64,000 bases of DNA from Giardia intestinalis (lineage: Eukaryota): assembly GCA_000002435.2 (NCBI GenBank), contig CM018793.1; one strand, given 5' to 3'. Of the stretch, positions 27,549 to 64,000 are shown one piece after another. A program made the translations under genes and the position numbers. The number at the start of each line of letters is the position of its first letter. Within the stretch, counting starts at the first letter, position 1. The notes under the pieces are model-generated. The model ran no database searches. It saw only the letters and a list, made by a program, of their open reading frames with translations, and had not been told where the DNA came from.

Positions 27549-30500
27549 TCATTGGGGTCCTGCACTCCGTCCAAGGGGCTGCTGCGCCGCGCGAAGCTTC
27601 ATGGCCCGAACCGTCCACGAGTCCCCCTTCCGCTCAAGCAGGCGACCCGTGAGGCCTGTGGCTTTGAGGAGGGTTCCAGGATCGCCCTGGGACGTAGGCG
27701 CAATGACTGGCCGCCGCGATGCCAGAAGCTGGCGGGTCACACCGAGCAGGTCCGCCTCTTCCACACTGTTACCCAGCGTCCCTGTCTGCTGCATGCTTTG
27801 AAGAATGACTGTGTCTACGCGATCCCCTGCAGAGCTCTCCGGCGCATATGTCCACGGGTATGCGCACGCAGGCGGGGCCTCAAGACGCATAGGTGGAGGG
27901 GGGTCCTGGAAGACTTGACTGGGCACTTCTTCGAGGTCTTCGATGGACAGCCTGGCTGTGTCTGCCAGTCCACTCTCTGAGGACTTTTGCCCGGAGCGTG
28001 CGGTAAGAGGCACGCCGAAAAGAGAGTCCCATCCCTTCGGAGGCGGGTCAAGATTGACTCTCTGAACAATGCCGAGGAGCTGGGCCCCGTCCAAGCCCCA
28101 CAGAGCTACTCGTTTGTCCCCGCCTATCGAAATGTATGCCTGGCTGTTGGAAGCAGCCGGAGAAAGCAGGCTAATGGGGGCGGCGTGAGCACGGTGGACG
28201 TACCGTACCCGGAGATACGAAGACGGAACGATTGGCGACGTCTTCCCAGAGCTCGGGGTATGAAGAAGACCCTTAGGGAGCTGCTGCGTGTCGAGACTGC
28301 GTGTGATCCCCAGAGCAGCTATCAGATTCTGAATCTTGTAGAGGGTCACAAAGCCTGCGTCGTCCCCGACCAGGATAGAGTGGGCGCCGTCCACAAAGCA
28401 GACAGCTGTCGGCATGGTGCGAGCAGAGAGAGCAAGAACGGACTCCTTCCGGACTGGCACTCTCACCTTGGTTCTGTCCCTGAAGACGTATTGATAGAGA
28501 ATGCCGTTTTCCTCTGCTTCCACGTCCTCCATCCCGGGCCGCGTCACAGCGGACCCCATCATGGTGCCATAAAGAGACGCATGGGCGTCTGCGTATTGCG
28601 CAGCCGCCGGACTCTCCACGTCAACGCCGGACGTCTTAAAGCGCGACTTAGAAAAGTCCTCGATCACCTTGCTGGACTTGTCGGAGAGCTTCACCGCTCC
28701 CTGAGGCACTTTGCGGCGAGAGGCGGCCTGCCTTGGCTGACTGGTGCCCAGCGGAACAGGAAGGAAGTCAACGTAGACCCTCCGAGGAGCAGCTAAGAAG
28801 CGCGTGAAGTAGAAAGAAACAAGCATTATCACCTGAGCAGCAGCCCGAATCTTCATAAGCGTTCTGCGCCGACGGGCTTGAAGGCCTCGGAAGTTCTGGG
28901 AAATGGGGACGTATCGGCGAAGGAGTGCCATTGTTGCAGAGACAATCTCTTGGTAAGACGGACCCGGCATTCTGGTGTGCGCACGCTCTGACCTTTCTTC
29001 CAAGTCGTCCTGTACACCGACGGTCTCCTGCTGGAGATGGCACAGAGATTGGCCTTCTTCAGTAGCCGCTGTGGATTCTTGGACCGTGATGTACGCATAG
29101 CGGTTGGAAACAGTATGCCTCTCAAACATCGATGGAGGCTGGACTGTTCCGGAAGCGGCCTCTCCCTCCCTATCGGTTGTCATCGAGGCGTCCATGGAGG
29201 GCGTTGCAGTCGACGCCTGGAGGTCTCCGACTCGCGCCCCGTAGGCCGTTTTCGTGGAAAGCAGACGATTGGCACGGAACTCCCCGTCAATCGACCGCAG
29301 AGCCTCGTCCCCGGGCACAGGGCCCTTACGTTCGGGGCAGTACTTTGTGTGGAGGAGATCTGGAGAAAAGTTTTCTATCAGGTAGCGAACCACGTCCTCG
29401 TATCTACTCCCATACAACTGGACGTCTGAATTGAAATCAGAGAGGGGCAGAAGGGCGTGCTTCAAGAATCCAGCTGTCTGGACCCAGCCGGCCTGAAAGT
29501 CTGCATTCAGTGGATAGCCCAGGGGATGGTAGCTTCCGTGGTAAAAGGCGCAGACGAGCGAAAAGTTCGGGTACAGCGGGCGGACCGCGTGGATGTAGCA
29601 GATGCCAGAGGCCGACGCCGAAAACAGAAGGGGCCACTGTCCCAGGAAGCAGAGGGCCGTTATGGGGGAGCCAACAGACGGGATTGTCGGGGGCTGGATC
29701 ACCCCCTGCTGCAGCAGCTTGACAGACATCGTGTCGTGGACGAGAATCCGGCCGTCAGAGGTGCCTATGGCCAGCAGAGACAGCTCCTCCGAGGCGTCAA
29801 TGCACGTCACGTACGAGTCACTTCGAGCCTTCTTTGCATGCCCGGTGTAGAGAACGTCGCAGAGCAGTTTCTGGATCGGAGACGGCGCCTGATTCGGCTG
29901 TCCTGCTGAAGAGACATCTCGGGCCCACAGGAACTCGGGGCAAAAGCGTCTTACAACCTCCGGCTTTGAAGAGAGGTCGTCTGCGCCTACAAACACGGGC
30001 TTCGACGAAAAGAACGCCGTGAGCTGCTGCCGTGCCCTTGCAAAGTGGTCTGCTCCTCCTGCAAAAAAGATGTCGAAGGTCGTCAGCTGCCTCGACAGCC
30101 CTATCTTGTTCACGTACTCGTGGCTCGGCTTCATGTCTATGGCGCGCACAATTTGCGGGTTGAGGTTGTCGCAGAGGAAGAGAAGGCCGCGCGCTCTGTC
30201 GGTGGCCAAGATTTGTGCGCGCATTATCGACTTGTCGGAAAGCAGCTGTCTCACAAAGGCTGCGTTGTTGGCCTTGACGATGATCTGAGACAGATTGAGC
30301 CCCAGGCTGTACGAGGAAGCTCCGGACGACATGTGCGAGTCGGCCCCTGCAGAAGGCTCCCTCTGTGCGTCGCCCAGTCTTTGGCCATCAAACGGGTTGT
30401 CGACGATGTCAATGTCGTCTTCGCATGTCCTCCGGCCGGTAATCCCAACGTTGGATATGTCGAAGAGAGAGCCGGTCTTCCAGTAAAGTGTCACTGCACC

Positions 30501-33269
30501 GTGAGTTCCTATGACGTAAAGAACGCGTCCCTTGCTGTCGACGGCGAGGGACAGAATCCGCCGCCCGAGGGCGTCGAGCAGAGACTGGGGGGCGTCGGGG
30601 GCGCTGGGGATCTGGCTGAGGATCTGCGGTGGCTTGTGGAGCGTCCTATATCGGGCTTCGTCGTCTGGAGTGGAAAAGTGGAGATCGGCCTCCGTCACCT
30701 CGCTCTGGCCCTCTGCGTAGAATTTCGAGAGGTCGCACGTCTCGATGCTTGCATACTCCGAACCCAGTACGGCATCCTGTGCGTCATCGCCACCGCTGCC
30801 TGTGCCGTCTCGGCCCTCCAGAAGCGTCTTGGAGATCCTTGCAATGTCGTAGATCCTGGACGGCCGGCCGGTAAGAAGCGAGAAGATCGTCACTTCCCCA
30901 GGGCCTGTGACGGCGCCAAGCTCGTTCATGCGCTGGTTGACGACAACGCCGGCGCACTCCTTGCTGATAGACCCCAGGGGAAGATGCTCGGGCGCGTGCT
31001 TGATCAGCTCCTTCGGCCTGCGCTTGCCCAGTGCCCGCTGCTCCTCCTCGCGCTTCGCGTCCTCAAAGTCCCAGACCACCTGCTCCTTGGCCAGCTCCTC
31101 GTTGGCAACCACCTTGAGGACGAACAGCCGGCGCCCGAAGGGGATGTAGCCGAAGTCGTGCTTGCGGCTATAGACCCCGGTGCCGACCTTGACTCCGTGC
31201 AGGTTGATGGCGATGTCGATCCGCGTGATGTGCGCACCCGTCAGTGCATGGATGAGGGTCACCACGTTGTCGTGGTCAATAACGCCAACAACGTTCCCGA
31301 AAGCGAACGACGCCAGAATAGGCTTGCCCGGCCTGGGCGGCTGGACAAGGGTGATCAGGTGCGCGGACTTCACGAGGTTGGCCTTCACGAGCCTCTTGTC
31401 AGAAACCTGCACGGCCTCGCGCCTCCTCTTCCCGCGCCTATCGTCCTCGCCGTCCACCCGGGCGGGGTCGTCCTCGAGCTCCTCCTTTGTCACGGCCATC
31501 CCCAAGTGGCAGGAGCGGACCGCCTCCGGGCCAATCTGGTAGACGTTGCTGAAGCCAATGGTTGTGATGTGATCGCTGACGACGTAGCACCGCATGATCC
31601 CCTCCGGGTGCAAGTCCGAGAACGTGCAGACGACCCCCAGGTCCTCGTCCAGAATGACGAGCGCGGCATCGGAGCCCACGACGGCTAGCCGGAACAGGCC
31701 GTCTGCCATGGCCTCCTCCCACTGGCCGCGCCCGGCGTCCATGCACCTGACGCTCCCCGCGACCACATACTTGGTGGTGACAAACTCGGCCCGGATCGTC
31801 AGATGCACGCCCCCGTGGCGCTTCTCGTGCGTTGCCGCGGCGACGGGGTCTGGGGCCACGGTCGCCTTGACAAAGGCCAGGGGGTCGTCGGCGATGAGCT
31901 GCGTCTCCTTGATTCCGTGGCTGAGAAGTGTGCTCTGCCCGGCGTCAAAGATCTGCGATGTGATGAGGCTCACGACCTCAAGGTCTTCGGAGGCCATGGC
32001 GATGAGCTGCTTGGACTTCCCTCGGAGCCGCTCCTTCTCCTGGGAGGACCTCTGCAGCGCCTCCGCGGTGCTCTTGGAGACGTCTATCAACGACGACCGG
32101 AGCTCCGGGTACACCTTCAAGAGCTCCTCCCGCGTCAGCGAGTCGAAGGAGCGGCCCTTTCCGAGGATCTGCATGGCAGCATCTACGGTGGTGCTGGCCA
32201 GAGAGGGCTGCCTGGAGTTCCCCGTGTTGCTGGGGTCTTCTGAAAGGTTTATCCCGCCAGCAAACTGTGGGGCGTCTGGGTCCCTTTCGTAGGCCAGCGC
32301 GTAAATGCTAACATTGCCAGATGCGTGGCCTATGTAGAGCCGGGACCGTGCTTCGTGCCAGAACAGACACGTCCCAGGGGACTGGAGCCGGAAGGGATCG
32401 GAGATGGCCATGTTTCCGGTGAGCGAAAAGACGATGAAGAGGGGCTCTCGCGTGCAAAGGACGATAAGCGGGAGAGGGGACATCCTGACAGAACACGTTA
32501 TGGTGCTGGAGCTCGTTATCCGCTTGTTCTGCATGTCCTGGAGAATTGCTCGGCGGCTCGTGGGGGCGGCATCAGGCACGGCAGACAGGAGCGACTGCTC
32601 TCTGACTGCATTTGCGTCTATGCCCATGGACTCGAGCCGCTTGTAGGCCTTCGCTTCAAGTCTTTCCTGCGCCCGCTGGTCCAACTGCACTTTGAAGAGC
32701 TCCTCCGGGTTCCCCGCCAAGACAGAGGCCTTGGGCTCGAAGATGAGGCGCGGATACATAAACTGGGAATCCGCCATGTAAACACCAAGGTCTGTGACAA
32801 GATAGTAGGCGTCCCCTATGATATACATGTTGAGGATGATGGACCCCTTCACGTCTGTGAGCTCGGCGTTATTTGGTATAGCCGACTCCACGGAGACTAA
32901 AGACGTCTTCCCAGAAACACCTGTCGCTGTTCGCATCAGTGACTGGAAAATGCTCTTATCTGTGAAGTCCTTATGCTGTTCGACATCCAAGTGGGCGCTC
33001 GAGACCTCGGAATAAAACCCGATAAAGTCGTACCACGTAACGAAACCGTCAAGATCCGTGTCTAGCTCCTCGAAAAGATCTATCAGCGCCTTGGAGATCC
33101 CTTCGAGCGAGACCTGATTGCCTGTGTAGGAGCGCGGCACAAAAGTCTGAATGGTTCTGGAGAGAAAGTCGAGCGTCACCTTGCGCCCATAGAAGAGCTT
33201 GCGAATGGTCTCCAGGTCTGCGGGATCGATTAGCTTGACGAGGTCAAGGGCCGTCTCGACAAGTGCCAT
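27549..33269 (-). CDS. Giant 1906-aa protein with an N-terminal EF-hand-like loop and WD40/beta-propeller-like segments; function unknown (possibly axonemal or Ca-regulated)
   Basis: The long intron-free ORF has an ATG start. The EF-hand loop is DTDLDGFVTWYDF near the N-terminus. WD-like strands include LLAIGTSDGRILVHD, LLFSASASGICYIHAV and IGHASGNVSIYAL. The antisense ORF 30045..31688 is a shadow. Confidence 0.75.
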   Translation of the reverse strand: MALVETALDLVKLIDPADLETIRKLFYGRKVTLDFLSRTIQTFVPRSYTGNQVSLEGISKALIDLFEELDTDLDGFVTWYDFIGFYSEVSSAHLDVEQHKDFTDKSIFQSLMRTATGVSGKTSLVSVESAIPNNAELTDVKGSIILNMYIIGDAYYLVTDLGVYMADSQFMYPRLIFEPKASVLAGNPEELFKVQLDQRAQERLEAKAYKRLESMGIDANAVREQSLLSAVPDAAPTSRRAILQDMQNKRITSSSTITCSVRMSPLPLIVLCTREPLFIVFSLTGNMAISDPFRLQSPGTCLFWHEARSRLYIGHASGNVSIYALAYERDPDAPQFAGGINLSEDPSNTGNSRQPSLASTTVDAAMQILGKGRSFDSLTREELLKVYPELRSSLIDVSKSTAEALQRSSQEKERLRGKSKQLIAMASEDLEVVSLITSQIFDAGQSTLLSHGIKETQLIADDPLAFVKATVAPDPVAAATHEKRHGGVHLTIRAEFVTTKYVVAGSVRCMDAGRGQWEEAMADGLFRLAVVGSDAALVILDEDLGVVCTFSDLHPEGIMRCYVVSDHITTIGFSNVYQIGPEAVRSCHLGMAVTKEELEDDPARVDGEDDRRGKRRREAVQVSDKRLVKANLVKSAHLITLVQPPRPGKPILASFAFGNVVGVIDHDNVVTLIHALTGAHITRIDIAINLHGVKVGTGVYSRKHDFGYIPFGRRLFVLKVVANEELAKEQVVWDFEDAKREEEQRALGKRRPKELIKHAPEHLPLGSISKECAGVVVNQRMNELGAVTGPGEVTIFSLLTGRPSRIYDIARISKTLLEGRDGTGSGGDDAQDAVLGSEYASIETCDLSKFYAEGQSEVTEADLHFSTPDDEARYRTLHKPPQILSQIPSAPDAPQSLLDALGRRILSLAVDSKGRVLYVIGTHGAVTLYWKTGSLFDISNVGITGRRTCEDDIDIVDNPFDGQRLGDAQREPSAGADSHMSSGASSYSLGLNLSQIIVKANNAAFVRQLLSDKSIMRAQILATDRARGLLFLCDNLNPQIVRAIDMKPSHEYVNKIGLSRQLTTFDIFFAGGADHFARARQQLTAFFSSKPVFVGADDLSSKPEVVRRFCPEFLWARDVSSAGQPNQAPSPIQKLLCDVLYTGHAKKARSDSYVTCIDASEELSLLAIGTSDGRILVHDTMSVKLLQQGVIQPPTIPSVGSPITALCFLGQWPLLFSASASGICYIHAVRPLYPNFSLVCAFYHGSYHPLGYPLNADFQAGWVQTAGFLKHALLPLSDFNSDVQLYGSRYEDVVRYLIENFSPDLLHTKYCPERKGPVPGDEALRSIDGEFRANRLLSTKTAYGARVGDLQASTATPSMDASMTTDREGEAASGTVQPPSMFERHTVSNRYAYITVQESTAATEEGQSLCHLQQETVGVQDDLEERSERAHTRMPGPSYQEIVSATMALLRRYVPISQNFRGLQARRRRTLMKIRAAAQVIMLVSFYFTRFLAAPRRVYVDFLPVPLGTSQPRQAASRRKVPQGAVKLSDKSSKVIEDFSKSRFKTSGVDVESPAAAQYADAHASLYGTMMGSAVTRPGMEDVEAEENGILYQYVFRDRTKVRVPVRKESVLALSARTMPTAVCFVDGAHSILVGDDAGFVTLYKIQNLIAALGITRSLDTQQLPKGLLHTPSSGKTSPIVPSSYLRVRYVHRAHAAPISLLSPAASNSQAYISIGGDKRVALWGLDGAQLLGIVQRVNLDPPPKGWDSLFGVPLTARSGQKSSESGLADTARLSIEDLEEVPSQVFQDPPPPMRLEAPPACAYPWTYAPESSAGDRVDTVILQSMQQTGTLGNSVEEADLLGVTRQLLASRRPVIAPTSQGDPGTLLKATGLTGRLLERKGDSWTVRAMKLRAAQQPLGRSAGPQ

Positions 33270-34618: not shown

Positions 34619-36364
34619 TTACTGTTCATCCTCGTTGGGCAGCGCAGGGGGTCGGAGATCCACGCCCATGGCCACCTTTGCCTTTTCCAGCTCGATGGTG
34701 TGCCGCAGCTCGTCGCGTCTGCGTTCGAGCTCTTGTCTGCGCCTCGCGATCTCCTCGTTCTCCTTGACCATTCGATCGTAGATGCGGGCCTTCGTTGCAT
34801 TGAGCATCGCCCGGCGCATCCGGGTCTCCTCGGAAAGCCTCTCTGCGTCCAGCGTCCGGGTGTCCTTGCGATAGAAGTCATCTGGGTTGATTTCTGAAGA
34901 CTCTGACTCGCTGGCCTCCTGCTCGTCGCAACCGAGGTTGAGCTCCTCTCTGAGGCTCGTTGCATGGGCCTTCGCTAGTTGCGTTGCCAGGCTGTCGACT
35001 GAGGACACCTTGGCGGCAGCCTCGTCCTTCGCCTCCAAAAGCCCGTGCTCCTGCAGTCCCTTCACCGCAGCGACAGAAAGAGTCGTGATATCGACCATAT
35101 TGTTTTTCTCGCGCACAAGCTGGTCGAGCTCCTTGACCCTGTCCGGCACGTATCCGTCTGCGTCAGCGGAGTCGTCATAAAAGGGAGAGACGTGGGGAGG
35201 CAGCACGGCCCCGGGCGCATACTCAGCGTGCGGAAGCGTGGTCCCCCAGTTGAGCGAGTCAAAGCACCACTGCGGTTGGAGGTACGCACAGCCATCTATT
35301 CGCGCGCCCACGACACCCTCTATGTTATGCGGCGGCCGATCTACTATAATATGCGTGGCCCCGTGAGGGGGACTTGAGTAAGTGAATACGTCTGCCCCGC
35401 CACTAAGAAGCACTAGTTCGAGGGGCTCGCGGGGAACCTCTCGGGAAATGGCGTGCTTCTGCCCAATAAAGGGCTTGACAGATGCCGGATTCAAGTTTCT
35501 AACCCCACCGTTCTTGTCACACGGTTCATCGCAGCCGTTGGGCCCGTAGATAAGAGAAAGGTCGACTTCGCTGGCAGTTGCATGTGCCCGAATATTCCCT
35601 ACGAGTCTGAGAATGTAATCTGCTTCTTCCTGGACAGCAGGGGGGTACTGGTACCCGTTGAGAAGGACGCTGTAGAGACGGTATAGGACGAAGCCAGCAA
35701 AAGTCTGATAGAACTCTACGAAGCTCTTAAGAACCTTGAAATCGACAACGTCTGGGACGTCGAGCTGGAAACGGTGGGGGACGAGCCACGTGACCTTCAC
35801 GCCCTGGACGACCGCTTGGTAGTAGTAACCCTTTGTCGAGACGAAGGCACGGACAAGACACCCTGTGGCTGCGATAAACGCATCCCACTCCCTGCAGAGA
35901 CGCTTGCAGTTGTCGATTATCTTTTGGGGTGCGTGTTCTGAGGACAACCTGGAGAACATGAAGAGGAGGCAAAGGGCGTCGTCGAAGTCGGAAAGAGCGT
36001 CCTTGAAGGTGGGATAGCGTTCCAGCACAACGTGATCCAAACTGATAATCGGCATCTGGGCCTGCAAGAGCTTTGCCTCGAGGACATTTGCTCGGGCCTT
36101 CATCCGCTTGATACGCTTGAGCTGCGCAGCAATCTCGCGAATCTTAGGAATGATGGGATCGTGGAATAAGTGGACGATATCCTTGCGCAGAAAGTATGAC
36201 GTGTCCCCTGCGAACTTCTTCGGAGGCACCTGAGGATAGATGCCCTTTATGATACAGACTCGGCGGAACTCCCCGAGGGTGAGCTGCAGCTTTCGACACG
36301 CCTTGTTGCGCGGCATGAACCGCATCTCCATGCTGTTGGGATCCTTACGCCTAACAAGCGGCAT
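34619..36364 (-). CDS. PES1: Pescadillo (Nop7/PES1) ribosome-biogenesis factor with a BRCT domain
   Basis: The N-terminus reads FMPRNKACRKLQLTLGEFRRVCIIKGIYP...YFLRKDIVHLFHDPII, which is the pescadillo N-domain. The BRCT-domain signature is FIGQKHAISREVPREPLELVLLSGGADV...THIIVDRP...YLQPQWCFDSLNWGTTLPHAEYAPGAVLPPHVSPF. A C-terminal coiled coil and acidic tail follow. The start is ATG behind an A/T-rich upstream element. Confidence 0.9.
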   Translation of the reverse strand: MPLVRRKDPNSMEMRFMPRNKACRKLQLTLGEFRRVCIIKGIYPQVPPKKFAGDTSYFLRKDIVHLFHDPIIPKIREIAAQLKRIKRMKARANVLEAKLLQAQMPIISLDHVVLERYPTFKDALSDFDDALCLLFMFSRLSSEHAPQKIIDNCKRLCREWDAFIAATGCLVRAFVSTKGYYYQAVVQGVKVTWLVPHRFQLDVPDVVDFKVLKSFVEFYQTFAGFVLYRLYSVLLNGYQYPPAVQEEADYILRLVGNIRAHATASEVDLSLIYGPNGCDEPCDKNGGVRNLNPASVKPFIGQKHAISREVPREPLELVLLSGGADVFTYSSPPHGATHIIVDRPPHNIEGVVGARIDGCAYLQPQWCFDSLNWGTTLPHAEYAPGAVLPPHVSPFYDDSADADGYVPDRVKELDQLVREKNNMVDITTLSVAAVKGLQEHGLLEAKDEAAAKVSSVDSLATQLAKAHATSLREELNLGCDEQEASESESSEINPDDFYRKDTRTLDAERLSEETRMRRAMLNATKARIYDRMVKENEEIARRRQELERRRDELRHTIELEKAKVAMGVDLRPPALPNEDEQ

Positions 36365-38370: not shown

Positions 38371-39636
38371 TCATATGAAGAAGCTAACTGAAAATTTCCA
38401 GATTCCGTCGTTGGGACTATAGCTGATAAGCTGTGCGTCTCTCTTCTGGGTCTCGTTCTTTATGATGGCTGTGAACTTCTGCACGCTTGGAAGGTCGTAC
38501 ACTCGTTCTCCTCTGTTGACTGGAAATATGTTGTAGAGGGTGATGATGGCCTCCTTGTTGAGCTTCTCGCCGCGGCGGTGTCTGTCCTTATAGGGAAGGG
38601 TATTGGGATACACGGTGGCGCTCTTGTGTCCAATGTCGACAATTCTATCTATATCTACGTCGGTAAGATCTGTCTCTCCAGGCCACAGAATCTCTCCGTT
38701 TGCCTCCGAGATGACCCGGAAATCTTTGATGGCTTGAAGCTCGTCGATTGACATGGCCTGCAGCTCAGAGATCGAAGGGACGGTGTGATAGTCGGTGCGT
38801 GTAAGGACAGGTTTGTGCGCAGAAGCCAAAGGGTAGTGAATTCCAGGGTTCGCTTCGCTTGCGCTCTCGTCCTCTTCCCGATAGCTTGGTATGTTGCATG
38901 CGGGTACTTCATCTTTGCCTATGCGGATAACTGTTGGATTTGCGAAGGGCGCAAACTGGTGCTGCGCTGACTCAGATGACTCTCTGGAGCCCCGCGGAAG
39001 CAAACCGACGGCTGCAGCTCTGGCTGCTGCTGCGCCAAAGGAGGATGTGCCGGACAGACCGAACCTGTTGTGGGCCTGGTCGTCCAAGAGCCGCAGGCTC
39101 TCCTGGGGGATGCCGGGCCTCCTCGTTGCAGCAGAGAGACGCACGGAGGCAGAGGCGGACGAAGTATTGGTTAAGATCTTCGAAAGGCTGGTTTCCAGTG
39201 CGGACGCTTCTGTCGCCACCGATGCCACTGAGGGCTGCGCCGCTTGGGGCTCCGGGGTGTCTGCCACTTGCCGTTTGATCATGTCCCCAATGAGGCTGAC
39301 TAGCTGCTGCGTGTTTGCACCTTGAGGCGGATGCTGAGCCGAAGCAGCGGTGTTAAAGCCCCCAAAGGTCTGCTGCGGCTGGCTAACTCCCTGGCCGAAA
39401 GCTTGCTGGCCGAAGGGTTGTCCAAGCCCGCCACCGAAGGTGTTCGTATTTGACTGTCCGAACGAAAATCCCGACTGCGGCTTCTGCTGGGTATTGCCGA
39501 GTCCAAACCCTGAGCCAAACCCCACTCCGGGCCCAGAATTGCCCTTGAACGTGCTCAAACTGGAGAATTGGCTCCCCTTATTCATGGACAAGTACAGCTT
39601 CTCAAGAAATGACGTCGCATCTTGTGCTATGTTCAT
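38371..39636 (-). CDS. NUP98: FG nucleoporin of the Nup98/Nup100/Nup116 type: an N-terminal FG/GLFG-like repeat block plus a C-terminal domain homologous to the Nup98 autoproteolytic/NPC-targeting domain
   Basis: The FG-repeat block is GFGSGFGLGN...SGFSFGQ...FGGGLGQPFGQQAFGQG...TFGGFN. The C-terminal 150 aa align to the human Nup98 APD. YHTVPSISELQAMS matches YYTIPSMDDLAKIT, VDIDRIVDIGHKSATVY matches LNLDDIVHIRRKEVVVY, GEKLNKEAIITLYNIFP matches GEGLNRKAEVTLDGVWP, and SYSPNDGIWKFSVSFF matches EYRPETGSWVFKVSHF. The start is ATG. Confidence 0.75.
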   Translation of the reverse strand: MNIAQDATSFLEKLYLSMNKGSQFSSLSTFKGNSGPGVGFGSGFGLGNTQQKPQSGFSFGQSNTNTFGGGLGQPFGQQAFGQGVSQPQQTFGGFNTAASAQHPPQGANTQQLVSLIGDMIKRQVADTPEPQAAQPSVASVATEASALETSLSKILTNTSSASASVRLSAATRRPGIPQESLRLLDDQAHNRFGLSGTSSFGAAAARAAAVGLLPRGSRESSESAQHQFAPFANPTVIRIGKDEVPACNIPSYREEDESASEANPGIHYPLASAHKPVLTRTDYHTVPSISELQAMSIDELQAIKDFRVISEANGEILWPGETDLTDVDIDRIVDIGHKSATVYPNTLPYKDRHRRGEKLNKEAIITLYNIFPVNRGERVYDLPSVQKFTAIIKNETQKRDAQLISYSPNDGIWKFSVSFFI

Positions 39637-40675: not shown

Positions 40676-43093
40676 TTATTCAAATTGGGCCATGCTCTCC
40701 GTCTTCTTTGAAACGCCTGCCATGCAAAAGTGCTGCAAGCAACTCGATAGCAGTGGAATATTCCATTCTTCTAACTCAGAAAGTTTGGAATGCAGAGGCA
40801 TATTGCTTCCAGCCAAGAGGAGCGCCAAAGAGCCCATCTCGATAGACAGTGGGATGGACTCTTCAAAGTGCCGCTGCAGCAGGGTCTGGGCCTCTTCCGC
40901 GTCTAGCTTGTATGTGTAATGGGGGTACAGTGCCCGGCAGACCAGAAGCTTCACTATGACGGCTCTGACCACGCGGCGCATGTGCGTCAGGGTGCTCACC
41001 TTGAAATTTTCGTAGCATCGCTTAATGATCGGGATGGTTTCCACGCCTACACACGGCTCCTCCGCCTCTCTGCTCACAAGGTGGCGATACTCTGGCTGTG
41101 TCCCCATGGTCAAACAAAGAAGCCTGATAACGAGTCGGCACTGCGAAATAGAGAGGTCTTGGAGGCGGCCACAGTATACTTCTATAACGTTAGTACAAAG
41201 AGCCGTCGTGGTAATCGTGCCGGAAAAGTATGTCTCTGTGATGCATAGGACTATTAAAAGCCATTCTTCGGGGGAGATCTCGACTGGTTTCCATTCGTAG
41301 GCCTTGTGGATGGAAGCTTGATAGGCCATCTCTCTACCCAGGTCTGTCAGGCACAAGCCATCGCCGGGGCCAAACCGCGTCACTGCTGCTGCGAGGGCAA
41401 GCGTGTCTAAGAGCTCCACATCCCCATAGAGCAGGGCTACCTTCTTTCTGGCCTCTTGGGAAAGCATCCCCGCGCCGACCACGTGTTCTGCCACTAGTCC
41501 TGTACTGTGGCCAATCCGTTTTGGGTGCACCGTTTTTCTAGAAAAGATGACGTCTAAGCCGTCGTAGAATCGTTGGAAGATGCCCTTTATGGTGCTGTAT
41601 ATGCTAGAATCGTTATAGAAGATCGTCACGTGTCTCAGCGCAGATCCTAGAGCATCTACTAAGACATGGAGTAATGACTCTGATGTAGCGCCGTTGAAGA
41701 GCAGCAAGCCCTCTGCAGCCGGAAGAAGCACCCTGTACTTCCGCATGTACAAGAGTATATCATTACTGCTTGAAAAGATGATGACCTTGTACTTGCACAA
41801 ATCGTCTTTAGCGCTAATCAAATCATGCAGCCTGTCCGGCCGGATGTGATAAAACTCATCTGCTGAAAGGACAGACAGTAGCACGTGTTGCAAGCTTTGT
41901 ACGTAAGAGCCTGTCAGACACGAAATATAGATGCAGCCGCTTGTGACTGTAACCAGGTTTCTGAAGTAGACTGTCATGGCTTGGTCAGATAACGGTGGAA
42001 CACAAAGCAGGGCAACCCGAGCCAATGGGGAAGAGACCGTCGAAAGAGGCACGGCGACGCTGCGCTTCCAGAGATAATAGTGATACGTAGATTCGTGAGT
42101 TGGTCGAAACAGCTGAGCTACCGCGCTTACTGAGAGGGAGCACGAGGCTGTATAGATGTTTATGCGCGTTAACCTTGTGCTTATATCTGCACTCATATCA
42201 TGATAAGCATACAGTAGCAAGAGTATGTCTGATGTGAATTCGGTCGGATTCGAACTAAGAGCACTTAAAGGGCTGAAGATAGGGTCAAAGAGTTGGAGTC
42301 TGGTGGGGCCCTGGCTCACGTTGAGGCATAGTTGCGCAGCGAGGGAATAGTACCCGAGGACAATCCTTAGAGCGCGTCCTTGCTTACGTGCACAATCAGC
42401 ATAATAATAAAGGTATGTGATAGAATCGACAGTGATAGAGCGGAACAGAGCCTCTAAGGAAGTTTGTTGGCTATGTGCAATGGGCGACGGAAGAGCAATC
42501 TCCATGGATTCGATACCGCCAGTATGCACAGCATCAATAAACCAGCGAGAGGAGAGCAACTTGAGATAGGTTTTTATCAAACGTGTACCCCGACGAGTCT
42601 GCGGAAACACAGCCAGAGTGCTTACTCTATGATCATTCCCCTCTAGCACGTCGTGTAGAAGTGCAGCTATTGCAGGAAACACAGGGTGTACACGGTTACC
42701 ATGATGGACCACTGAAACGTTGTCGCTTGCATGTAATGCTGTCAATTCCAGGACCTCATTGCTACACTCTTCTCCAAGGTCAATCAGTCCTGCTTCACAC
42801 ATGTCACTCAGAGCGCTGCACAGAGATGTATTGGCAAGCCATAAGTTCCGGGGGCAAGTATCTATATAACGATGGAGGGTGGCGGAGGGCCTATCTCCAT
42901 CAAGAAGCTTCAGTAAGATCTCCCACAAAGAGCAGTAATCCTTCAGAGCTTCCGTAACCAGGTTGGCCAGCGTTTGGTCGGACAAGGGCCAAGCTGTTAG
43001 GATGTCATGGAGAAGCCTCCTTCCTTTTCGAACAACCGCATAACTATAATTGTACCAGTCATCAATCAGTGCACTCCGAACGGCACCATCCAT
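40676..43093 (-). CDS. Hypothetical alpha-helical Leu-rich protein of about 805 aa with no recognisable domain
   Basis: The long ORF shows codon-level constraint. The ORF-track start at 43111 is TTG, and the first ATG gives MDGAVRSAL... (43093). It shares a spacer of under 90 bp with BOP1, which is transcribed divergently. Confidence 0.6.
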   Translation of the reverse strand: MDGAVRSALIDDWYNYSYAVVRKGRRLLHDILTAWPLSDQTLANLVTEALKDYCSLWEILLKLLDGDRPSATLHRYIDTCPRNLWLANTSLCSALSDMCEAGLIDLGEECSNEVLELTALHASDNVSVVHHGNRVHPVFPAIAALLHDVLEGNDHRVSTLAVFPQTRRGTRLIKTYLKLLSSRWFIDAVHTGGIESMEIALPSPIAHSQQTSLEALFRSITVDSITYLYYYADCARKQGRALRIVLGYYSLAAQLCLNVSQGPTRLQLFDPIFSPLSALSSNPTEFTSDILLLLYAYHDMSADISTRLTRINIYTASCSLSVSAVAQLFRPTHESTYHYYLWKRSVAVPLSTVSSPLARVALLCVPPLSDQAMTVYFRNLVTVTSGCIYISCLTGSYVQSLQHVLLSVLSADEFYHIRPDRLHDLISAKDDLCKYKVIIFSSSNDILLYMRKYRVLLPAAEGLLLFNGATSESLLHVLVDALGSALRHVTIFYNDSSIYSTIKGIFQRFYDGLDVIFSRKTVHPKRIGHSTGLVAEHVVGAGMLSQEARKKVALLYGDVELLDTLALAAAVTRFGPGDGLCLTDLGREMAYQASIHKAYEWKPVEISPEEWLLIVLCITETYFSGTITTTALCTNVIEVYCGRLQDLSISQCRLVIRLLCLTMGTQPEYRHLVSREAEEPCVGVETIPIIKRCYENFKVSTLTHMRRVVRAVIVKLLVCRALYPHYTYKLDAEEAQTLLQRHFEESIPLSIEMGSLALLLAGSNMPLHSKLSELEEWNIPLLSSCLQHFCMAGVSKKTESMAQFE

Positions 43094-43181
43094 CCCCGGG
43101 TAGAGTGTCAAGCCGCAGTGGGTGGATCCCGAGTCACTAAGAAAAGACGCGAATAAAAAACCAGAACAGCATTTAATTGGT
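43094..43181. promoter_or_regulatory. Bidirectional A/T-rich promoter spacer shared by the unknown 805-aa gene and BOP1
   Basis: It lies between the minus-strand ATG (43093) and the plus-strand ATG (43182). It contains AATAAAAAACCAGAACAGCATTTAATTGGT directly before the ATG of BOP1. Confidence 0.45.
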
Positions 43182-45449
43182 ATGTCTCAGGAGCCCAGTT
43201 CTAGCTTCTCGGATGGATTCATGGAGTCCGACTTTTCACAGGGAAGTTTTTCGGCATCTGACGACGCCGAGTTGAGTATCCCGTCTGAGTTTGCGGAGTC
43301 CGTGGACGAGCTTTCGTCTTCCTCTGACAATGGGGATCAGGGCCAACCTTTAACCGAGCCCAACAATATCCCGATCGACGAAGACACCGTTTATAATATA
43401 TGGGGCCAAGTGGTCGGAACACGCCGTAAGGACATTGGGCCCGATGGTTCCAGCCTGGACATGTTTCTAGAGCGGCACAAAGACACAAACGAATTCTTTA
43501 GGACAGTATACGACCCTGCTAAAGGTTACAAGAGGGCAAATCTAACGCCAGAAGAAGAGGAGATGATCCGCAATGTTATGGTGTCCAGGCCTTACAACGA
43601 CGCCCCTGGATTATCCCGGATGAACATCCAGTCTACTCTTGTCAATAAAAACATCATGAGGACAGCTCTTACGTCGGACATTGTGGGTCCTAAGGAAAAG
43701 TATGCATCGAAGGCCATTGTGCGCAAGATTGAAAAGCTTAGGGAGGGAATTGAGCGTGGAGAAATAGTCTATGATCCAAATCGTTATAAGGTAGATGAGA
43801 ACAGGGGACTGGTAGTGGGCAATCGAGATCTTTGGGCAGACGTGGACGAAACAGAAGACCCGTCCATGCGCATACCAAAGGGGCGCGGAGAGATGTACAT
43901 GAACCCCACAAAGCCAAAGCTTCCTGGGCATGCCCTGAGCTACAACCCGCCGCTGGAATACCTTAACATTGACGGCGATGGATCCCAACAAAAGCTCCAA
44001 AGCCTGCGACAGATCAAGACATACACTAACTTTGTTAAGGATCAGTTCGATCGCTGCGTTACTCTCTACTTGAATCCGCGTCAACGGCTCCGGAAAGAGG
44101 AGGACATGGACAGCATGCTACCAACTCTACCGAACAGGTCGCTCCTGACACCGTACCCAACATTCTGCGCCATGACCATCCGGACGGGAACAAGACGCAT
44201 AAACGGGCTCACGTTCTCCCCCAAGGGAATGTTCTTTGCTGTGGGAGGGCGCGACTGCATTTTGAGAGTTTTCGAAACCTACTCCGGACGCCAAGTCAGA
44301 GCCATCCCTGTTCTATCCACAAAGAAGCTGGAGAAGAAAAGCATCAACTTTCTCAATCTGGAAATCAACTGCTGCAAATGGTGTCCAAGGACTGATGTGA
44401 GCATCATTGCTGTGTGTGCAGGGGACGAACTCATTTTCGTTGACGCTGGGATCTGCGAAAGTGGGAATTACAACGAGGTCAGGGAGCGAACACGCTTTCT
44501 TCTGAATGCTCGGCCCGAAACCACTCAGCCGTGCCCCCACATGGCTTGGGAGATGCATGCAGGTGTGACTTCAGGCGGAAAAAGCTACGCCTCTGGGTTT
44601 GTCACGCAGGTGTCTAGCAATGCGTACAACGAGGGCTCTGAGGACGACGACGCGGCCGAGTCGGCCCGCTTTAACGAGGAGCGCCACCAAAGGGGACACG
44701 AGGGCCAAATCGATGCAGACGTCTACACCGTGTATACTCGTCTCAATCAGTTTGTTTTACTGAGAATCCACCACACACATCTTGTCAGCTTCTGCAACTG
44801 GCACTTTCAGGGTGATTACATCGTCACAGTATGCACCGATGATAAAAGTCGTGCAAAGGTGACCCTTCACCAACTCTCAAAATGGCACAGCCTGTCTCCT
44901 TTTAATAGACTCAAGTCAAAGATTATAGGAGCACACTTTCGAACAAAGAAATCCGAGCTTATCGTTGTGTCAGAGCGGTCGTCGCGCATATACAACCTGC
45001 TGACGGGTGACAAGTTGTCCACGCTCTACCCAGGAGTAAAGCAAGTGACAGCCAGTGGCATGGGTTATGGAGACAACTTCATCACGGGGAGTGCCGACTC
45101 CCAGTGTGCCCTGTTTGCCAACGCTGCTGGGCCCGAGCCCACTGCAAAGCTCTGCTACCACACTTCAACAATCCGGAACATCGACGTCCACCCTTGCGGA
45201 GGCCTAGTAGCTACGTGCTCGGATGACGGAATTGTGCAGATCAGCCGTATCGTAGATGCGTCTCTTGTGAAGATGCATCCGGGGCAATTTGACGAAAAGC
45301 TGTACAATAGGATGATTCCATGCGTCGTCCTAAATCGACGGCGACAGGCGGCAGACGGGTCTGTAGGTATCAGTAGGGTCACGTGGCACCCAAGACAGCC
45401 CTGGCTCCTCTGCAGCGGGACAGACGGGGTCCTGCGCCTCTTCAAATGA
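43182..45449 (+). CDS. BOP1: BOP1/Erb1 ribosome-biogenesis WD-repeat protein
   Basis: BOP1NT-domain signatures are present, including MNPTKPKLPGHALSYNPPLEYL (consensus hxxPKxKLPGHaESYNPPxEYL). C-terminal WD repeats end ...VTWHPRQPWLLCSGTDGVLRLFK, a typical BOP1 terminus. The ORF-track start (43122) is GTG, and the first ATG preceded by an A/T-rich element is at 43182 (MSQEPSS...). Confidence 0.85.
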   Translation: MSQEPSSSFSDGFMESDFSQGSFSASDDAELSIPSEFAESVDELSSSSDNGDQGQPLTEPNNIPIDEDTVYNIWGQVVGTRRKDIGPDGSSLDMFLERHKDTNEFFRTVYDPAKGYKRANLTPEEEEMIRNVMVSRPYNDAPGLSRMNIQSTLVNKNIMRTALTSDIVGPKEKYASKAIVRKIEKLREGIERGEIVYDPNRYKVDENRGLVVGNRDLWADVDETEDPSMRIPKGRGEMYMNPTKPKLPGHALSYNPPLEYLNIDGDGSQQKLQSLRQIKTYTNFVKDQFDRCVTLYLNPRQRLRKEEDMDSMLPTLPNRSLLTPYPTFCAMTIRTGTRRINGLTFSPKGMFFAVGGRDCILRVFETYSGRQVRAIPVLSTKKLEKKSINFLNLEINCCKWCPRTDVSIIAVCAGDELIFVDAGICESGNYNEVRERTRFLLNARPETTQPCPHMAWEMHAGVTSGGKSYASGFVTQVSSNAYNEGSEDDDAAESARFNEERHQRGHEGQIDADVYTVYTRLNQFVLLRIHHTHLVSFCNWHFQGDYIVTVCTDDKSRAKVTLHQLSKWHSLSPFNRLKSKIIGAHFRTKKSELIVVSERSSRIYNLLTGDKLSTLYPGVKQVTASGMGYGDNFITGSADSQCALFANAAGPEPTAKLCYHTSTIRNIDVHPCGGLVATCSDDGIVQISRIVDASLVKMHPGQFDEKLYNRMIPCVVLNRRRQAADGSVGISRVTWHPRQPWLLCSGTDGVLRLFK

Positions 45450-50095: not shown

Positions 50096-51361
50096 ATGAC
50101 ATCTCAGCACCTTTCGGACACTTCAGAGTTTAAGCTTTTGCTAGAGGGTTTTAACCAGCTGCATGTGCGATCTGCGTCTTACACCCCCACTCAGAACGGC
50201 TATAGCCCACTTCAGAGACCCATTAGAGAGCATCTCAAGTACGGAGTCATTAATCTCGACAAGACTGCAGGACCCTCATCTCATGAAGTTGTTGCCTGGA
50301 TCCGCCGCATTTTGGAGGTGGAGAAGACAGGCCATTCAGGCACACTCGATCCGGGCGTCACGGGTTGTCTGCTTGTTTGTCTGGACCGGGCCACCAGGCT
50401 GGTGAAGTCCCAACAGCTCATGGGGAAGGAATACGTCTGCGTGCTCCAGTTCAAGGACCTGGCCGCGCTTAAGGACGAGGACGCCCGCAAGGCCTTTTCG
50501 GCCTGCCTGCAGCAGGCTCTTGCGACACTCAGGTGCGCCCAGCTGCAGCTTCCCCCCAAGGAAGGCTGTGCTGTGAAGCGTCAGCTGCGCGTCAGGGAAA
50601 TATATACCTTGGATTTATTAGAGTTCAACTTCAAAACGGGGCAAGCAGTACTGAGGGCGTCATGCCAGGCAGGGACATATATGCGCACCCTTTGCGTTCA
50701 CATAGGGCTTCTCGTGGGTCACGAGGCATACATGCTAGAGCTTCGCCGCGTCAGGTCCGGTGAGCTAACCGAGAAGACCAACATGGTTACGCTGCACGAT
50801 GTCCTGGACAGCTTCTGGTGCTGGAAGAACCTGGGCGACGAAAGCTATCTCCGAAAGGTCGTGATGCCTCTCGAATACTTGCTGAAGTCGTACAAGCGGA
50901 TTTTCGTCAAGGATTCGTCCATCAATGCGCTGACCTATGGGGCTCCACTCCACATCCAGGGCGTCTTGCGCTACGACCCTCGCATCAGCATCGGAGACAC
51001 GGTTGTCCTGGTTTCCACGAAGGGCGAGGCCGTGGCCCTGGGGACGGCAACCATGGGGGCCCAGGACATCATGGGCGTGAGTCGCGGGATCGTAAGCAAA
51101 GTCAAGCGCGTCATCATGGACAGGGACCTCTACGACCGCCAGTGGGGCCTGGGGCCGACCGCCCTTCTGAAGAAGCAGCTTATCAAGAACGGCCAGCTGG
51201 ATAAGTATGGAGGCATCAACAAGGACACACCGAAGGAGTGGGTGGAGAGGTTCCAGAACACGGAGGAGTTTCTAAAAACAGCGGGGAATACCTGCGGAAA
51301 CAGCACCGAGGGTGCGAACACTAAAGATGCAGATGGGCGCCAGCGGGGGCTCAAGAAGTAG
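50096..51361 (+). CDS. CBF5: Cbf5/dyskerin H/ACA snoRNP pseudouridine synthase (TruB family plus PUA)
   Basis: The TruB catalytic region reads HSGTLDPGVTGCLLVCLDRATRLVKSQQ. The PUA region (VVLVSTKGEAVALGTATM) and a basic C-terminal tail are present. The start is ATG. Confidence 0.9.
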   Translation: MTSQHLSDTSEFKLLLEGFNQLHVRSASYTPTQNGYSPLQRPIREHLKYGVINLDKTAGPSSHEVVAWIRRILEVEKTGHSGTLDPGVTGCLLVCLDRATRLVKSQQLMGKEYVCVLQFKDLAALKDEDARKAFSACLQQALATLRCAQLQLPPKEGCAVKRQLRVREIYTLDLLEFNFKTGQAVLRASCQAGTYMRTLCVHIGLLVGHEAYMLELRRVRSGELTEKTNMVTLHDVLDSFWCWKNLGDESYLRKVVMPLEYLLKSYKRIFVKDSSINALTYGAPLHIQGVLRYDPRISIGDTVVLVSTKGEAVALGTATMGAQDIMGVSRGIVSKVKRVIMDRDLYDRQWGLGPTALLKKQLIKNGQLDKYGGINKDTPKEWVERFQNTEEFLKTAGNTCGNSTEGANTKDADGRQRGLKK

Positions 51362-54251: not shown

Positions 54252-57200
54252 ATGCTCTCTCTTTCCTTCGATGACTGGGCTACCCACGAGGTCCAGGTCA
54301 ATCCCCTTAATCCGCTTTCCTTACAAGACCCGCCCACCGATCGCACACGGCTGGCCTCTTTGTCTCGGTCTTTGATGTTTGGGCAGGAGCTCACAGACAG
54401 CGCCCTCCCCTCGCTATTCGTTTCCACAGATCTCCCCTTCTCCATGAAAAACACGCGCTTCGTGGCAATCTCAGCTGGCGTGGCTGCATATCTCGTCTGC
54501 GGATCCGAGAGCAATACCTTTATGCTGTATGACATTCAAACCGGTGAACTTGAGCTTGAAATGAACCCTGAGGTAGATGGCTTCCTTCTTGGTGGTATTG
54601 CATATGTAGTGAAGAAGAAAAGTGCTGCGCGAGTGGTCTTCATGGTTGCATATAGTGCTACGGCGCTTTGCTGCTATTACTACAAGGACAAGGTTCTTGA
54701 ACAGCAGAAGATCACTGCCTCCGTGCTTGGACTGAAGAACATTGCCACAGTCACGTGCCTGCCAATGGCGGATGCATCTTCAGAATCGTTGGACACTAGC
54801 AAAGGCACCATCAAAACCCACCAGCAGTTCTCCATTTTAGTCGCGGACACATCTGGAAACGTTGTACGCCTTACCATTTCTACTAAAACTGAGGCGTTCA
54901 AAACCACTATCATCCATGAAGCAGACACAGATGCTTCTTTCTTGCAATTGCACGCGGTAGCGGCTCCTCTTGCCATTGAGGGGCTTGACCTATATAAATC
55001 CAACGGCCCAGACTTCTCTGTTCTCATATTCATCGTTTTCAAAGACAAGGTAGTAATCAAGGCGTGCGGGACTATTCCGCAAACAGTCCTTTCGATGGGC
55101 GTGCTTGCTAGCCAATTCCTCCCTGAGGGGCTCTTGCTTAGTGCGATCACAGGGGTGGAAACGGGATCTACGGGCGGGTTTCAGACAGCATATAACCTCA
55201 GGATTCTTTTCACATCTGAGTCCGAACTGAGCGTTGCTTCGCTAGTGCCGTTTAGCTCGAAACATCAGGTTGCTCCAAGCGAAGTCAACTTTAAGCTGGA
55301 TCATAAGCAGAAGTATAGCCTTTTGGGCCTTCGTTCCGTCTGCTTTTTGGCGTCAGATATAGCAGTCTTCTTCTGCTCCAAAGCTTGGCATGCTGCATTT
55401 TTGATTACACCCATTGATGCTCTCGGCCATGAACCTGCTATCTCACATGTGCAGGAGATCGATTCTCACAGCTTGTCTGGGGATTTCAACATACTAGACA
55501 TTGATACCCCTTTCTTCACCACAGATCCCGTTTATGGGCCGCGCCTGCTTTGCACGCCAACAGCTCCAATTGCTAGTTGGCCTGCCAAAATCTTGACTAC
55601 AAAAACACTTGACTCCCTATGTACTGGGCACGCGGCTTCGCGTTCTCAACATCTCGCCTTACCACTAGTGTATAACTATGCTTACAGAGTTTTTGGTCTT
55701 GGACTACTAAAATCTGATATATTTGCGAATTCCCTCTCTGTCCCGTTTAACCCATTAGAGCTCTCGGCGTGCCTGTACATTCACGAAAGTAACCACAGAT
55801 CAACAGCCTGGACAAAGCATCTCGCCGGCTCCTTACAGGCTGCCCATCTTTCTAAGGATGGGCTCTCGACTGTTGATAAGCTGCTTAACTTAATAGTTAA
55901 GCTCTTCGAAGCACCTTTTCAGAACGATTCCCATGGCTACGTTGTGTCGGTCCATCTCTTGGCCCTTGCAGCTAGTCTCAACGCTCTTTCGGCGTTCTTA
56001 GGGTTGGCACTGAAGACTTTTGGCAGCAGTTATATCTCCGAAGCACCGCCGTACTTTCTTGCTGCCCTTGTCTTCCTAACACTTAACTTTCAGCTCGACC
56101 TTTCAATAGACGATCTTTCCGCGCTTTTGGATGTCCTTAAGACCCAATTGGCCTGCTCTAATACCTCTCACCAATTCACTTGTCCATTGATTCAAGAGCC
56201 CGAGTTCATTCTGCGCAGGGCCTTAGACCCAAACAAAGTCCTCGAAAACATCCAATCCATATGCTTACTGAACTCGTGCAACCGCCAGCAGTATGACGAT
56301 CTGCTGGCTGTGACTACAAATCGGAAACTAGAAGCTGCCCTTTTCTTCCTATATGTGCTTCGCGTCTTCGATGACTCTAAGGAGGGTGGCGAAGGCGTGC
56401 TTCGGTCAGATCCTTGGCCCGACTTTTTCAAAGAGATCAGAAGGCAACAAGATGCTGGCTCGCAGGAGGGTCTCTTTGCATACCATCAATTCCTACGACT
56501 TGTGCTCACTGACTTTACAGATGCAGCTACAACCATACGCACTGCTAATATTTGTCTCCGAACAACGTCGGGCCTTTCTCTACACTTGCCTGTCTACCTT
56601 GCTAACCAGGCCGTTGTCATTGACGCTTCTCGCGCGTCTTCGCTTTCATCCGGCTTTTACAAGACGCTACACAATAAAGTATTTACGGGCAATCCAAACG
56701 AGCTGGTCCTGGAGTGGATTAGCATAAGTTGTCGGGACTTCTGCCTAATCGCACTCTCCTCTGTAGCGGCAAAAGCAGCCGGCCTTGTGCGCAAGTCCAG
56801 CGGTTCCAACTCGAATTATCTCATGGAGTTCAATCACGTTCTTATTACCCTCCAGAATCTAGTCTTCGATACCTCATTTATCGAGAACCTGAAGAGCGTC
56901 GACTCGGTGGACAATCCACGGATCTTTAGGCGGAGCGTCACCACGGGAAGGCTGAACTTTGAGAGCCTGCTGTTGCTCAGTCACGTACTCTTTGATATTT
57001 CCATGATTGTCCTAGACATTATGAGGCACACTTCTCCTGGAACTCCCGTGCAGAACGAGGCGTTGAGGAAGCACGGCATTCTCCCGGAAATTGACAGGAT
57101 TGCTGCTTGCAAAATGTTATCGCGTCTTCCAGAGTGCTGCTGGATATACCTCCTACTTGTTCGCGCCATGGAAACACCAGAGCAACTCGAGGCGTGTCTG

Positions 57201-63100: not shown

Positions 63101-64000
63101 ACCAGGAGGTACCGGTGATCTGCGGGGGCTCCGGCAGGTGCGGGCCGAGCGGCTGCATCTGCAACCTGGGAACGAAGCTGTTTGGCAACGCCTGCGTCGG
63201 GATCAACTGCTTCATCAACGCCACGAATGACAGTGGAGGGGTTGCCGAGTCGGTGTGCGGGAGCGAGGCCGTCGGGGTGTGCACGAAGATAGCGTCCCAC
63301 GGCGACCGTCGAGATTACGCCTGCAAATGCGTGACGTCTCCCCCCGAGGGATACGAGGAGGTCGACGGGTTCTGCCTGCCAAAGTCCTGCGTATTCGCGG
63401 TTGGGACCCTCGACGGTCAGGACGCGAAGACGATGTGCGGCGGAAGCCACTTCGGGACCTGCGTGATCAGCACCAACCAGCAGACGAGCTCCTACTGCAG
63501 CTGCAAGAGCAGGCCCGACGTCGTTCAGCTCACGTCGGGGCAGTGCATGAAGCGGGACTGCGTCAGCGACGCCCTGCCCGGGAGCGCGTACCAGAGCATC
63601 GAGTGCTACGGCCACGGAAAGTGCAGGACGGGCGACGGCGTCACCTACGCGTGCAAGTGCGAGGAGGGATACAAGACGGTCAGGGGCGTGATCGGGACCT
63701 ACCTCTGCATCCCGCAGGCATGCGTCGTCTCGGAGACAGACACGGCCGCGGTCTGCAGCGGGCGGGGGACCTGCTCGGTGGACGAGAAGACATGCAAGTG
63801 CGGCACGGAGTATGCTGGCGAGAGGTGCGAGACCTGCGCGGCCGGCTACAAGGAGCACACGAACAGGCGGTGCTACCGCAGCAGCTGCCCGGAGGACGGG
63901 AATTGCGGCGTAGAGGACGGCGCCAGCCTGGGCAGCTGCCAGTTCGGCGGCAGTAGCTTCAGCTGCATCTGCGTCAACTCGAGCTTCGTCACCGACAGCG
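60160..64000 (+). CDS. Giant secreted cysteine-rich EGF-like/CXXC-module protein (more than 1280 aa, runs past the window end); a paralogue of the 36441..38159 gene
   Basis: The start is ATG at 60160, preceded by in-frame stops, and the signal peptide is MLILLCAAACLAEA. The frame stays open to position 64000. The same module recurs (CQCRRGWVGAACD, CDCYPIYRGGLCQSCD, CKCNDGYTRVGHKCVRTEC, CRCPDMLIAVSGECTSPAC), with CXXC pairs (CDPCP, CDTCT, CETCK, CNGCP). The antisense 812-aa ORF 61420..63858 is a shadow. Confidence 0.8.
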   Translation, partial: MLILLCAAACLAEACGTGPACVNGDCAYGDGAHFCQCRRGWVGAACDAPRAGFRKITTSGQTPADRAVNYACLVNGTECTGSSKCTYYAGAYSCDPCPAGFVSYEGECLPRGCFNTGDYSDQEATKAPCNGRGRCLLKDPGLAGMDADDYACDCYPIYRGGLCQSCDDANAIAAGSSSSDALPTCNARACQDSDGVVCSGQGTCTLDVGLDRESYHYRCKCNDGYTRVGHKCVRTECVATIDGSPVVCGGFGECTDKDSPGTFKCVCDSNAVPVGQFCTYPACTDSAATEICGGVGACVRDGAGYKCDCRGLATGDLCDTCTPGKSAQVGDKCVPVGCLTSNNQESCKNGGTCVKSDGEYHCRCPDMLIAVSGECTSPACMDEELGKVCSGHGTCKTDDPQDIKCTCSSEYTYVAPGRCILTALMDGDRICSGHGHVSIDTSDPPTMTCRCSSIYEGSKCETCKASVAQEIEGECVPTKCIVAPQPGSRATTPRVCDDHGQYTKFGDPSDPFATCTPKDPDSGTVSAYNGTFLARPGCVHVSKVDRTRRFYCGFLQGLTDNLQEGVVTCNTQNEGSVSVETCNGCPEGFKLVHFGAEEGYRKTCMHDNCYHGTGASRMWYDYCGGTGDCIKEGDTYRCDCGPSATWNEGLKACVTEACKLNKTLAGPEAPEYCAAPSSLALHCTVGRDAAWQCDCPQGDYLTYNRTCILRSKSASPTTHRARGLCGGPGAGFLSGSGSCVCNPGFLKIDDMCYSYDCLPVGVTADTKRLDLSPHVCSGKGVCAYNQLTGRYGCECEAGLEAFGGYCTHPGCAGKVIHNGELKYVECKVYDGSVGSCVQSADGAAYFCACSFPYTSVGGLCVHQRCVVNGEYCGGDALASCVRGSDSLYGCVCSEGYELSEERSEHGNKAKCVPSRCMYRPSAGDPAIECNGLGTCGNGGGGSLLKDKRCECSGGAQLHTLRDASGELRETCILDACISSKDQEVPVICGGSGRCGPSGCICNLGTKLFGNACVGINCFINATNDSGGVAESVCGSEAVGVCTKIASHGDRRDYACKCVTSPPEGYEEVDGFCLPKSCVFAVGTLDGQDAKTMCGGSHFGTCVISTNQQTSSYCSCKSRPDVVQLTSGQCMKRDCVSDALPGSAYQSIECYGHGKCRTGDGVTYACKCEEGYKTVRGVIGTYLCIPQACVVSETDTAAVCSGRGTCSVDEKTCKCGTEYAGERCETCAAGYKEHTNRRCYRSSCPEDGNCGVEDGASLGSCQFGGSSFSCICVNSSFVTDS

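Follow-up and report, generated by a model that had tools for sequence, protein, structure and literature searches.

The gene at 38371-39636 on the minus strand of the window (the whole 64,000-nt stretch of Giardia intestinalis DNA analyzed here) raises the question of how a Nup98-type nucleoporin is organized when its reading frame closes at the very point at which its relatives carry a self-cleavage site. The answer that we regard as very probable is that G. intestinalis (assemblage A, WB-type) has at this locus its only nucleoporin gene of the Nup98/Nup145N family, the product of which comprises an FG block, a linker, and a dead autoproteolytic domain (APD) with no Nup96.

Identity of the gene and its surroundings

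The open reading frame starts with ATG, ends with TGA, and encodes 421 amino acids; its limits were taken from the ORF list and from 100% identity (421/421) to XP_001704060.1 (GL50803_8038, A8BZA0) of G. intestinalis WB. All Giardia genome releases examined carry an annotation of the gene, under the database name "Nucleoporin" for GL50803_8038 and as "Nuclear pore complex protein Nup98" or "Nucleoporin autopeptidase-like protein/Nup98" in other isolates. Regarding the literature, Nup96-98 was marked as present in Giardia by Neumann et al. (2010), and a table in their supplement places GL50803_8038 beside Tb11.03.0140, the trypanosome protein called Nup96/98 in their main text; judged by this trypanosome entry, the table is the one for Nup96-98. 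A Giardia homologue without the catalytic residues was reported by DeGrasse et al. (2009; PMC2742445). We found no mention of GL50803_8038, XP_001704060, or A8BZA0 in the main texts of the papers, the identifier appearing only in the supplement of Neumann et al. (2010), and our literature search returned no tagging, imaging, or NPC proteomics paper on the residence of this protein in the Giardia pore.

Both the gene and the absence of its self-cleavage residues had appeared in print by 2009-2010, and nothing in either is new. The initial annotation had presented the locus as a useful anchor for a poorly defined pore; as a new one, it fails on the existing Nucleoporin/Nup98 annotations and on the two reports above. 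The observation is correct but ordinary, and carries little weight as a discovery. Few nucleoporins of Giardia can be assigned securely; GL50803_8038 is among them, and is for this reason well suited as a bait for affinity capture or proximity labeling in the poorly known diplomonad pore.

The nucleoporin gene is part of a tightly packed gene row, with a CDK-like kinase gene upstream at a gap of 61 nt and a gene for an EGF-like Cys-rich protein downstream beyond a 211-nt spacer. In the contigs of a relative with 74% identity, the genes for BOP1, an 808-aa protein, CDK, the nucleoporin, the EGF-like protein, Pescadillo, and a PQ-loop protein follow one another in the same order as in the window. 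The counterpart of the 808-aa protein (L001:1511-3937 in the relative) is an ORF of 811 aa (40676-43111, minus strand) that lies upstream of the nucleoporin gene as its second neighbor, is conserved at the same position, and has no Pfam match.

The C-terminal domain

The C-terminal ~145 residues of the protein are a clear homologue of the Nup98/Nup145N APD with a predicted beta-sandwich fold. The boundaries of the domain (residues ~276-421; 38374-38811, minus strand) were drawn from Pfam, phmmer, AlphaFold, and Foldseek. Residues 281-420 matched the Pfam family PF04096 (Nucleoporin2; Nup98-96 autopeptidase S59) with an E-value of 1.3e-29 and 103.7 bits (gathering score, 28.4), and the match covered profile positions 2-143 of 148. 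When the PDB was searched with the Giardia protein using phmmer, Nup98 APD chains (E=3e-19 to 5e-13), Nup145N domains (E ~1e-7 to 2e-6), and Nup116 domains (E ~5e-5 to 5e-4) were returned, and no domains were matched besides these three. When 1.84 billion representative proteins were scanned exhaustively with HMMER, 1771 relatives were recovered, the closest of which outside Giardia showed just 31-41% identity over the domain. An orthologue alignment showed that the APD is nearly invariant across Giardia assemblages, and two whole-database searches recovered only one PF04096 family in Giardia.

The full-length protein, run in AlphaFold with 5 close sequences from Giardia, yielded a model too poor to use (pLDDT 34), and this run was replaced by one on the APD alone, which was built on a 22-sequence alignment (A3) and reached a pLDDT of 90.9 and a pTM of 0.85. 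A Foldseek comparison of this model with the PDB yielded 22 matches at E<=1e-3, including 3pbp, 2aiv, and 3nf5, all of which were APDs of Nup98, Nup145N, or Nup116 with TM-scores of 0.59-0.83; the first match outside these 22 appeared at E=0.5. The initial annotation had assigned the domain to the Nup98 family and proposed a search with the APD profile and a superposition of the predicted fold on Nup98 APD structures; profile, PDB sequences, and predicted fold all agree with this assignment.

An unusual architecture was observed in the distant relatives P0029, P0038, and P0067, which have two APD-like domains per chain and no FG block. None of the three has HF at the end of its first copy, and P0029 and P0038 close their last copy with RF-stop.

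Loss of the cleavage site and the end of the chain

Three independent alignments placed the end of the Giardia protein, WKFSVSFF-I-stop, opposite the pattern W.F.V.HF followed by Ser/Thr, and the aligned stretch of solved Nup98 chains is WVFKVNHF. Phe419-Phe420-Ile421 and then the TGA stop codon (38371-38373, minus strand), one residue beyond the position of the scissile bond, stand at the His-Phe-Ser/Thr of the relatives. Since FF-I-stop is aligned to this site, neither the catalytic His nor the nucleophile is present; Phe replaces the former and Ile occupies the position of the latter, and, as judged from these residues, the APD is catalytically dead. The alignments with PDB chains and with relatives thus bear out the initial description of a His-to-Phe change and an absent Ser nucleophile. 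In the absence of the catalytic H-F/Y-S/T tripeptide, the protein would be classified as a non-peptidase homologue within the MEROPS S59 family.

In a survey of the cleavage site in the best 150 of the 1771 relatives, HF was followed by Ser in 81 domains and by Thr in 12, while a further 19 domains terminated exactly at HF. Approximately 20 domains of these best 150 relatives had a residue other than His (YF, GF, SF, CF, NF, or RF), most of them stopping 0-22 residues after the Phe, and FFI was limited to the Giardia lineage.

That most eukaryotic relatives are Nup98-96 fusions, with HF followed by Ser or Thr in 93 domains of this survey, is the sole prior for regarding the truncated end as an assembly or sequencing artefact, behind which the true gene would keep an intact HFS and continue as a Nup96-like region. 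This source of error, which the initial annotation itself had raised, is opposed by the same FFI-stop ending in all of the independent Giardia-lineage sequences examined (26/26), which represent several assemblages and derive from NCBI genomes as well as many read-archive assemblies. The ending is kept in orthologues of 99, 83, 77, and 74% identity, and conservation of the chain end in Giardia orthologues down to 74% identity argues against a sequencing error. Moreover, the 74%-identity relative has both an unchanged gene end and the EGF-like gene downstream, the 211-nt spacer contains stop codons in all three frames before the EGF-like gene, and the His-to-Phe change lies inside the ORF, independent of the stop. 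With the conserved FFI-stop, synteny, and spacer stops, an artefactual ending is effectively refuted, and we give it practically no chance.

Searches for Nup96 also spoke against such an artefact. A Nup96 profile (52 Nup96 moieties) run against 190 six-frame ORFs of the window gave nothing better than E=0.22, and the 811-aa ORF at 40676-43111 had no match to the profile at E<=10. Pfam scans detected no nucleoporin domains in the other large ORFs of the window, and Nup96 was absent downstream of the nucleoporin gene in the syntenic contigs of the 74%-identity relative. The locus does not have the layout of a Nup98-Nup96 (Nup145N-Nup145C) precursor: the stop codon comes one residue past the scissile position, and the next gene is the EGF-like one. 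The stop codon, the spacer stops, the synteny of the relative, and the profile search of the window all agree with the earlier statement that no Nup96 is attached.

The FG block and the linker

The N-terminal FG-repeat block (residues ~31-100; 39337-39546, minus strand) was delimited by FG counts and a shuffle test. Seven FG dipeptides fall in residues 40-92, against 2.4 expected from the composition (shuffle p ~0.001), and two isolated ones are located at 192 and 200; the initial annotation was right to call the block short, and its figure of about 8 FG in 90 aa is corrected by this count. Residues 31-100 contain 27% Gly and 3% D/E/R/K, which is in line with the Gly-rich, charge-poor FG regions of Nup98-type homologues described by DeGrasse et al. 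(2009; PMC2742445). FxFG occurs once in the nucleoporin, and the GLFG tetrapeptide, which marks the repeats of this family in opisthokonts, was present in none of the Giardia orthologues examined. Since the block is very short and has no GLFG, its contribution to the barrier may be small.

The unusual shortness of this block may also be taken to suggest that the APD was co-opted outside the pore and that the gene no longer encodes a nucleoporin, in which case the multi-APD relatives without an FG block (P0029 and P0038) would exemplify the use of the domain in other contexts, and the sparse pore inventory of Giardia (Neumann et al., 2010, Table 2) would be in keeping. However, the FG dipeptides are significantly enriched within a block of the composition expected of the family, the APD is strongly conserved across assemblages, and the order of FG block, linker, and APD is canonical. 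We consider co-option improbable, and retain the reading of the gene as a Nup98/Nup145N-family nucleoporin.

The linker (residues 101-264; 38845-39336, minus strand), which was examined using an orthologue alignment and a PDB sequence search, had no PDB sequence match and no Pfam domain. Two of its segments are conserved. Q105-V124 (QGANTQQLVSLIGDMIKRQV) is invariant across the Giardia orthologues, and a helix was placed at 109-124 in the low-confidence full-length model (pLDDT 34). P177-G193 (PQESLRLLDDQAHNRFG) is invariant except at two variable positions, and weakly resembles the GLEBS core KSfEELRlEDYqaGNKG, the core in 34 full-length relatives. GLEBS profiles derived from full-length relatives aligned residues 179-190 (ESLRLLDDQAHN) to EELRlEDYqagn; the scores of the segment, at -4.2 bits with the 68-column profile and -2.0 bits with the core profile, were not significant, and 68 of 3000 shuffles scored as well with the core profile (empirical p ~0.02). 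The segment P177-G193 as a putative GLEBS (Rae1-binding) motif is a weak lead and not a finding.

Comparison with other proteins of the Nup98 family

Human/vertebrate Nup98 is the closest protein in sequence, and yeast Nup100/Nup116 are the closest in architecture. Nup98 and the Giardia protein have the order of FG region, linker, and APD in common, and their APDs share 26-32% identity over ~150 residues with TM-scores of 0.75-0.83. The core residues of Nup98 kept in Giardia are L14, Y19, P23, F42, G50, Y79, G92, L95, N96, A99, W149, and F156 (A3 numbering). In contrast to Nup98, the Giardia protein has FF-I-stop in place of His-Phe-Ser, is not fused to Nup96, and has neither GLFG repeats nor a demonstrable GLEBS; its FG region spans ~60 residues as opposed to ~500, with 7 repeats in the block as opposed to dozens.

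Saccharomyces Nup116 and Nup100 are, like the Giardia protein, FG nucleoporins with a non-cleaving C-terminus of the APD fold and no Nup145C, and in these proteins the domain is a pore-targeting and docking module. On the basis of this shared architecture of FG block, non-cleaving APD, and no Nup96, the Giardia gene might be a true orthologue of fungal Nup100/Nup116, with a separate, cleaving Nup98-96 gene elsewhere in the genome. Nup100 and Nup116 are, however, fungal-lineage duplicates, paralogues of the cleaving Nup145, and the Giardia APD is much nearer in sequence to Nup98 (E ~1e-16) than to Nup116 (E=5e-5). Furthermore, whereas Nup100 and Nup116 have their cleaving sister gene, the Giardia gene appears to be single-copy, a single PF04096 family having been recovered in the two whole-database searches. 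The YF, GF, SF, CF, NF, and RF endings are scattered among relatives, and this variety suggests repeated independent losses of the site. Orthology to the fungal pair is highly improbable, and the "Nup100/Nup116 style" of the initial annotation holds as an architectural and functional analogy, while as a label of orthology it is disfavored by the pairwise scores, which are better for Nup98. Since Nup100 and Nup116 are fungal paralogues and the Giardia domain is closer to Nup98, the likeness is best read as convergent, probably arising from an independent loss of the cleavage site in a protein of the Nup98/Nup145N family.

TbNup158 (Tb11.03.0140) of Trypanosoma brucei, an excavate Nup98-96 homologue, has an APD without the catalytic residues and is not cleaved (DeGrasse et al., 2009; PMC2742445). 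A non-catalytic APD is common to TbNup158 and the Giardia protein; however, the former still has its Nup96-like alpha-solenoid fused in one 158-kDa chain, whereas in the latter the chain terminates together with its APD. When named metamonad homologues were sought with A3 as the profile, only short fragments came back, all of them from other lineages.

Possible roles in the pore

Pore residence and a docking role are suggested by homology. By analogy with Nup98, Nup145N, and Nup116, the protein would be translated directly in its "mature" form without self-cleavage, the dead APD would have docking to the pore scaffold as its only function, and the FG block would add to the permeability barrier and interact with transport receptors. 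Short linear motifs for binding to the scaffold or to Rae1 may reside in the conserved linker segments. The Giardia protein may offer a clean natural example of an APD retained purely for docking, the partner of which may be Nup96, Nup82/88, or another protein.

Since a Nup98-family protein appears to be made pre-cleaved with no recognizable Nup96, the scaffold partner onto which the dead APD docks may be specific to the lineage or highly diverged. Neumann et al. (2010) listed a Rae1 candidate in Giardia, GL50803_102890, and a more speculative scheme, which we regard as rather unlikely in its entirety, is that the sole, pre-cleaved Nup98-family protein has such a partner for its APD and recruits this Rae1 through PQESLRLLDDQAHNRFG as a degenerate, minimal GLEBS. 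If true, the pre-cleaved protein, the diverged partner, and the degenerate GLEBS would together amount to a Nup98 module pared to a minimum, within a reduced pore.

Other features of the window

Positions 1-19888 of the window consist entirely of N, an uninterrupted assembly gap, and only ~44 kb are real sequence. Ribosomal DNA with a GC content of 67-75% adjoins the gap at 19889-23347 on the minus strand, in which Rfam models placed a eukaryotic SSU rRNA (19500-21118, minus strand, 617 bits) that is cut at the gap and the 3' half of an LSU rRNA (22296-23347, minus strand, 813 bits); the ORF list has long entries at 20397-23365, which are spurious frames inside this rDNA. Such an arrangement would fit a Giardia rDNA unit that adjoins a gap at a chromosome end. 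At the right end of the window, an 812-aa ORF with a GTG start and no Pfam match (61420-63858, minus strand) lies in a stretch of 62-66% GC, and could be either a genuine gene or an ORF that arises from the base composition.

Two other large ORFs look like diverged tethering subunits of the HOPS/CORVET type or protocoatomer-like proteins. The 1906-aa ORF at 27549-33269 (minus strand) had only faint beta-propeller matches (PEP5/VPS11 N-terminus and HPS5), and the 1649-aa ORF at 54252-59201 (plus strand) had a weak C-terminal match to a Vps8/Vps41-type RING finger that falls just under the Pfam cut-offs.

Genes for ribosome biogenesis are located around the nucleoporin gene, namely those for Pescadillo, BOP1, and a dyskerin/Cbf5-like pseudouridine synthase at 34619-36364 (minus strand), 43122-45449 (plus strand), and 50096-51361 (plus strand), respectively. 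Pescadillo and BOP1, which are partners in the PeBoW complex in other eukaryotes, are encoded ~7 kb apart in the window.
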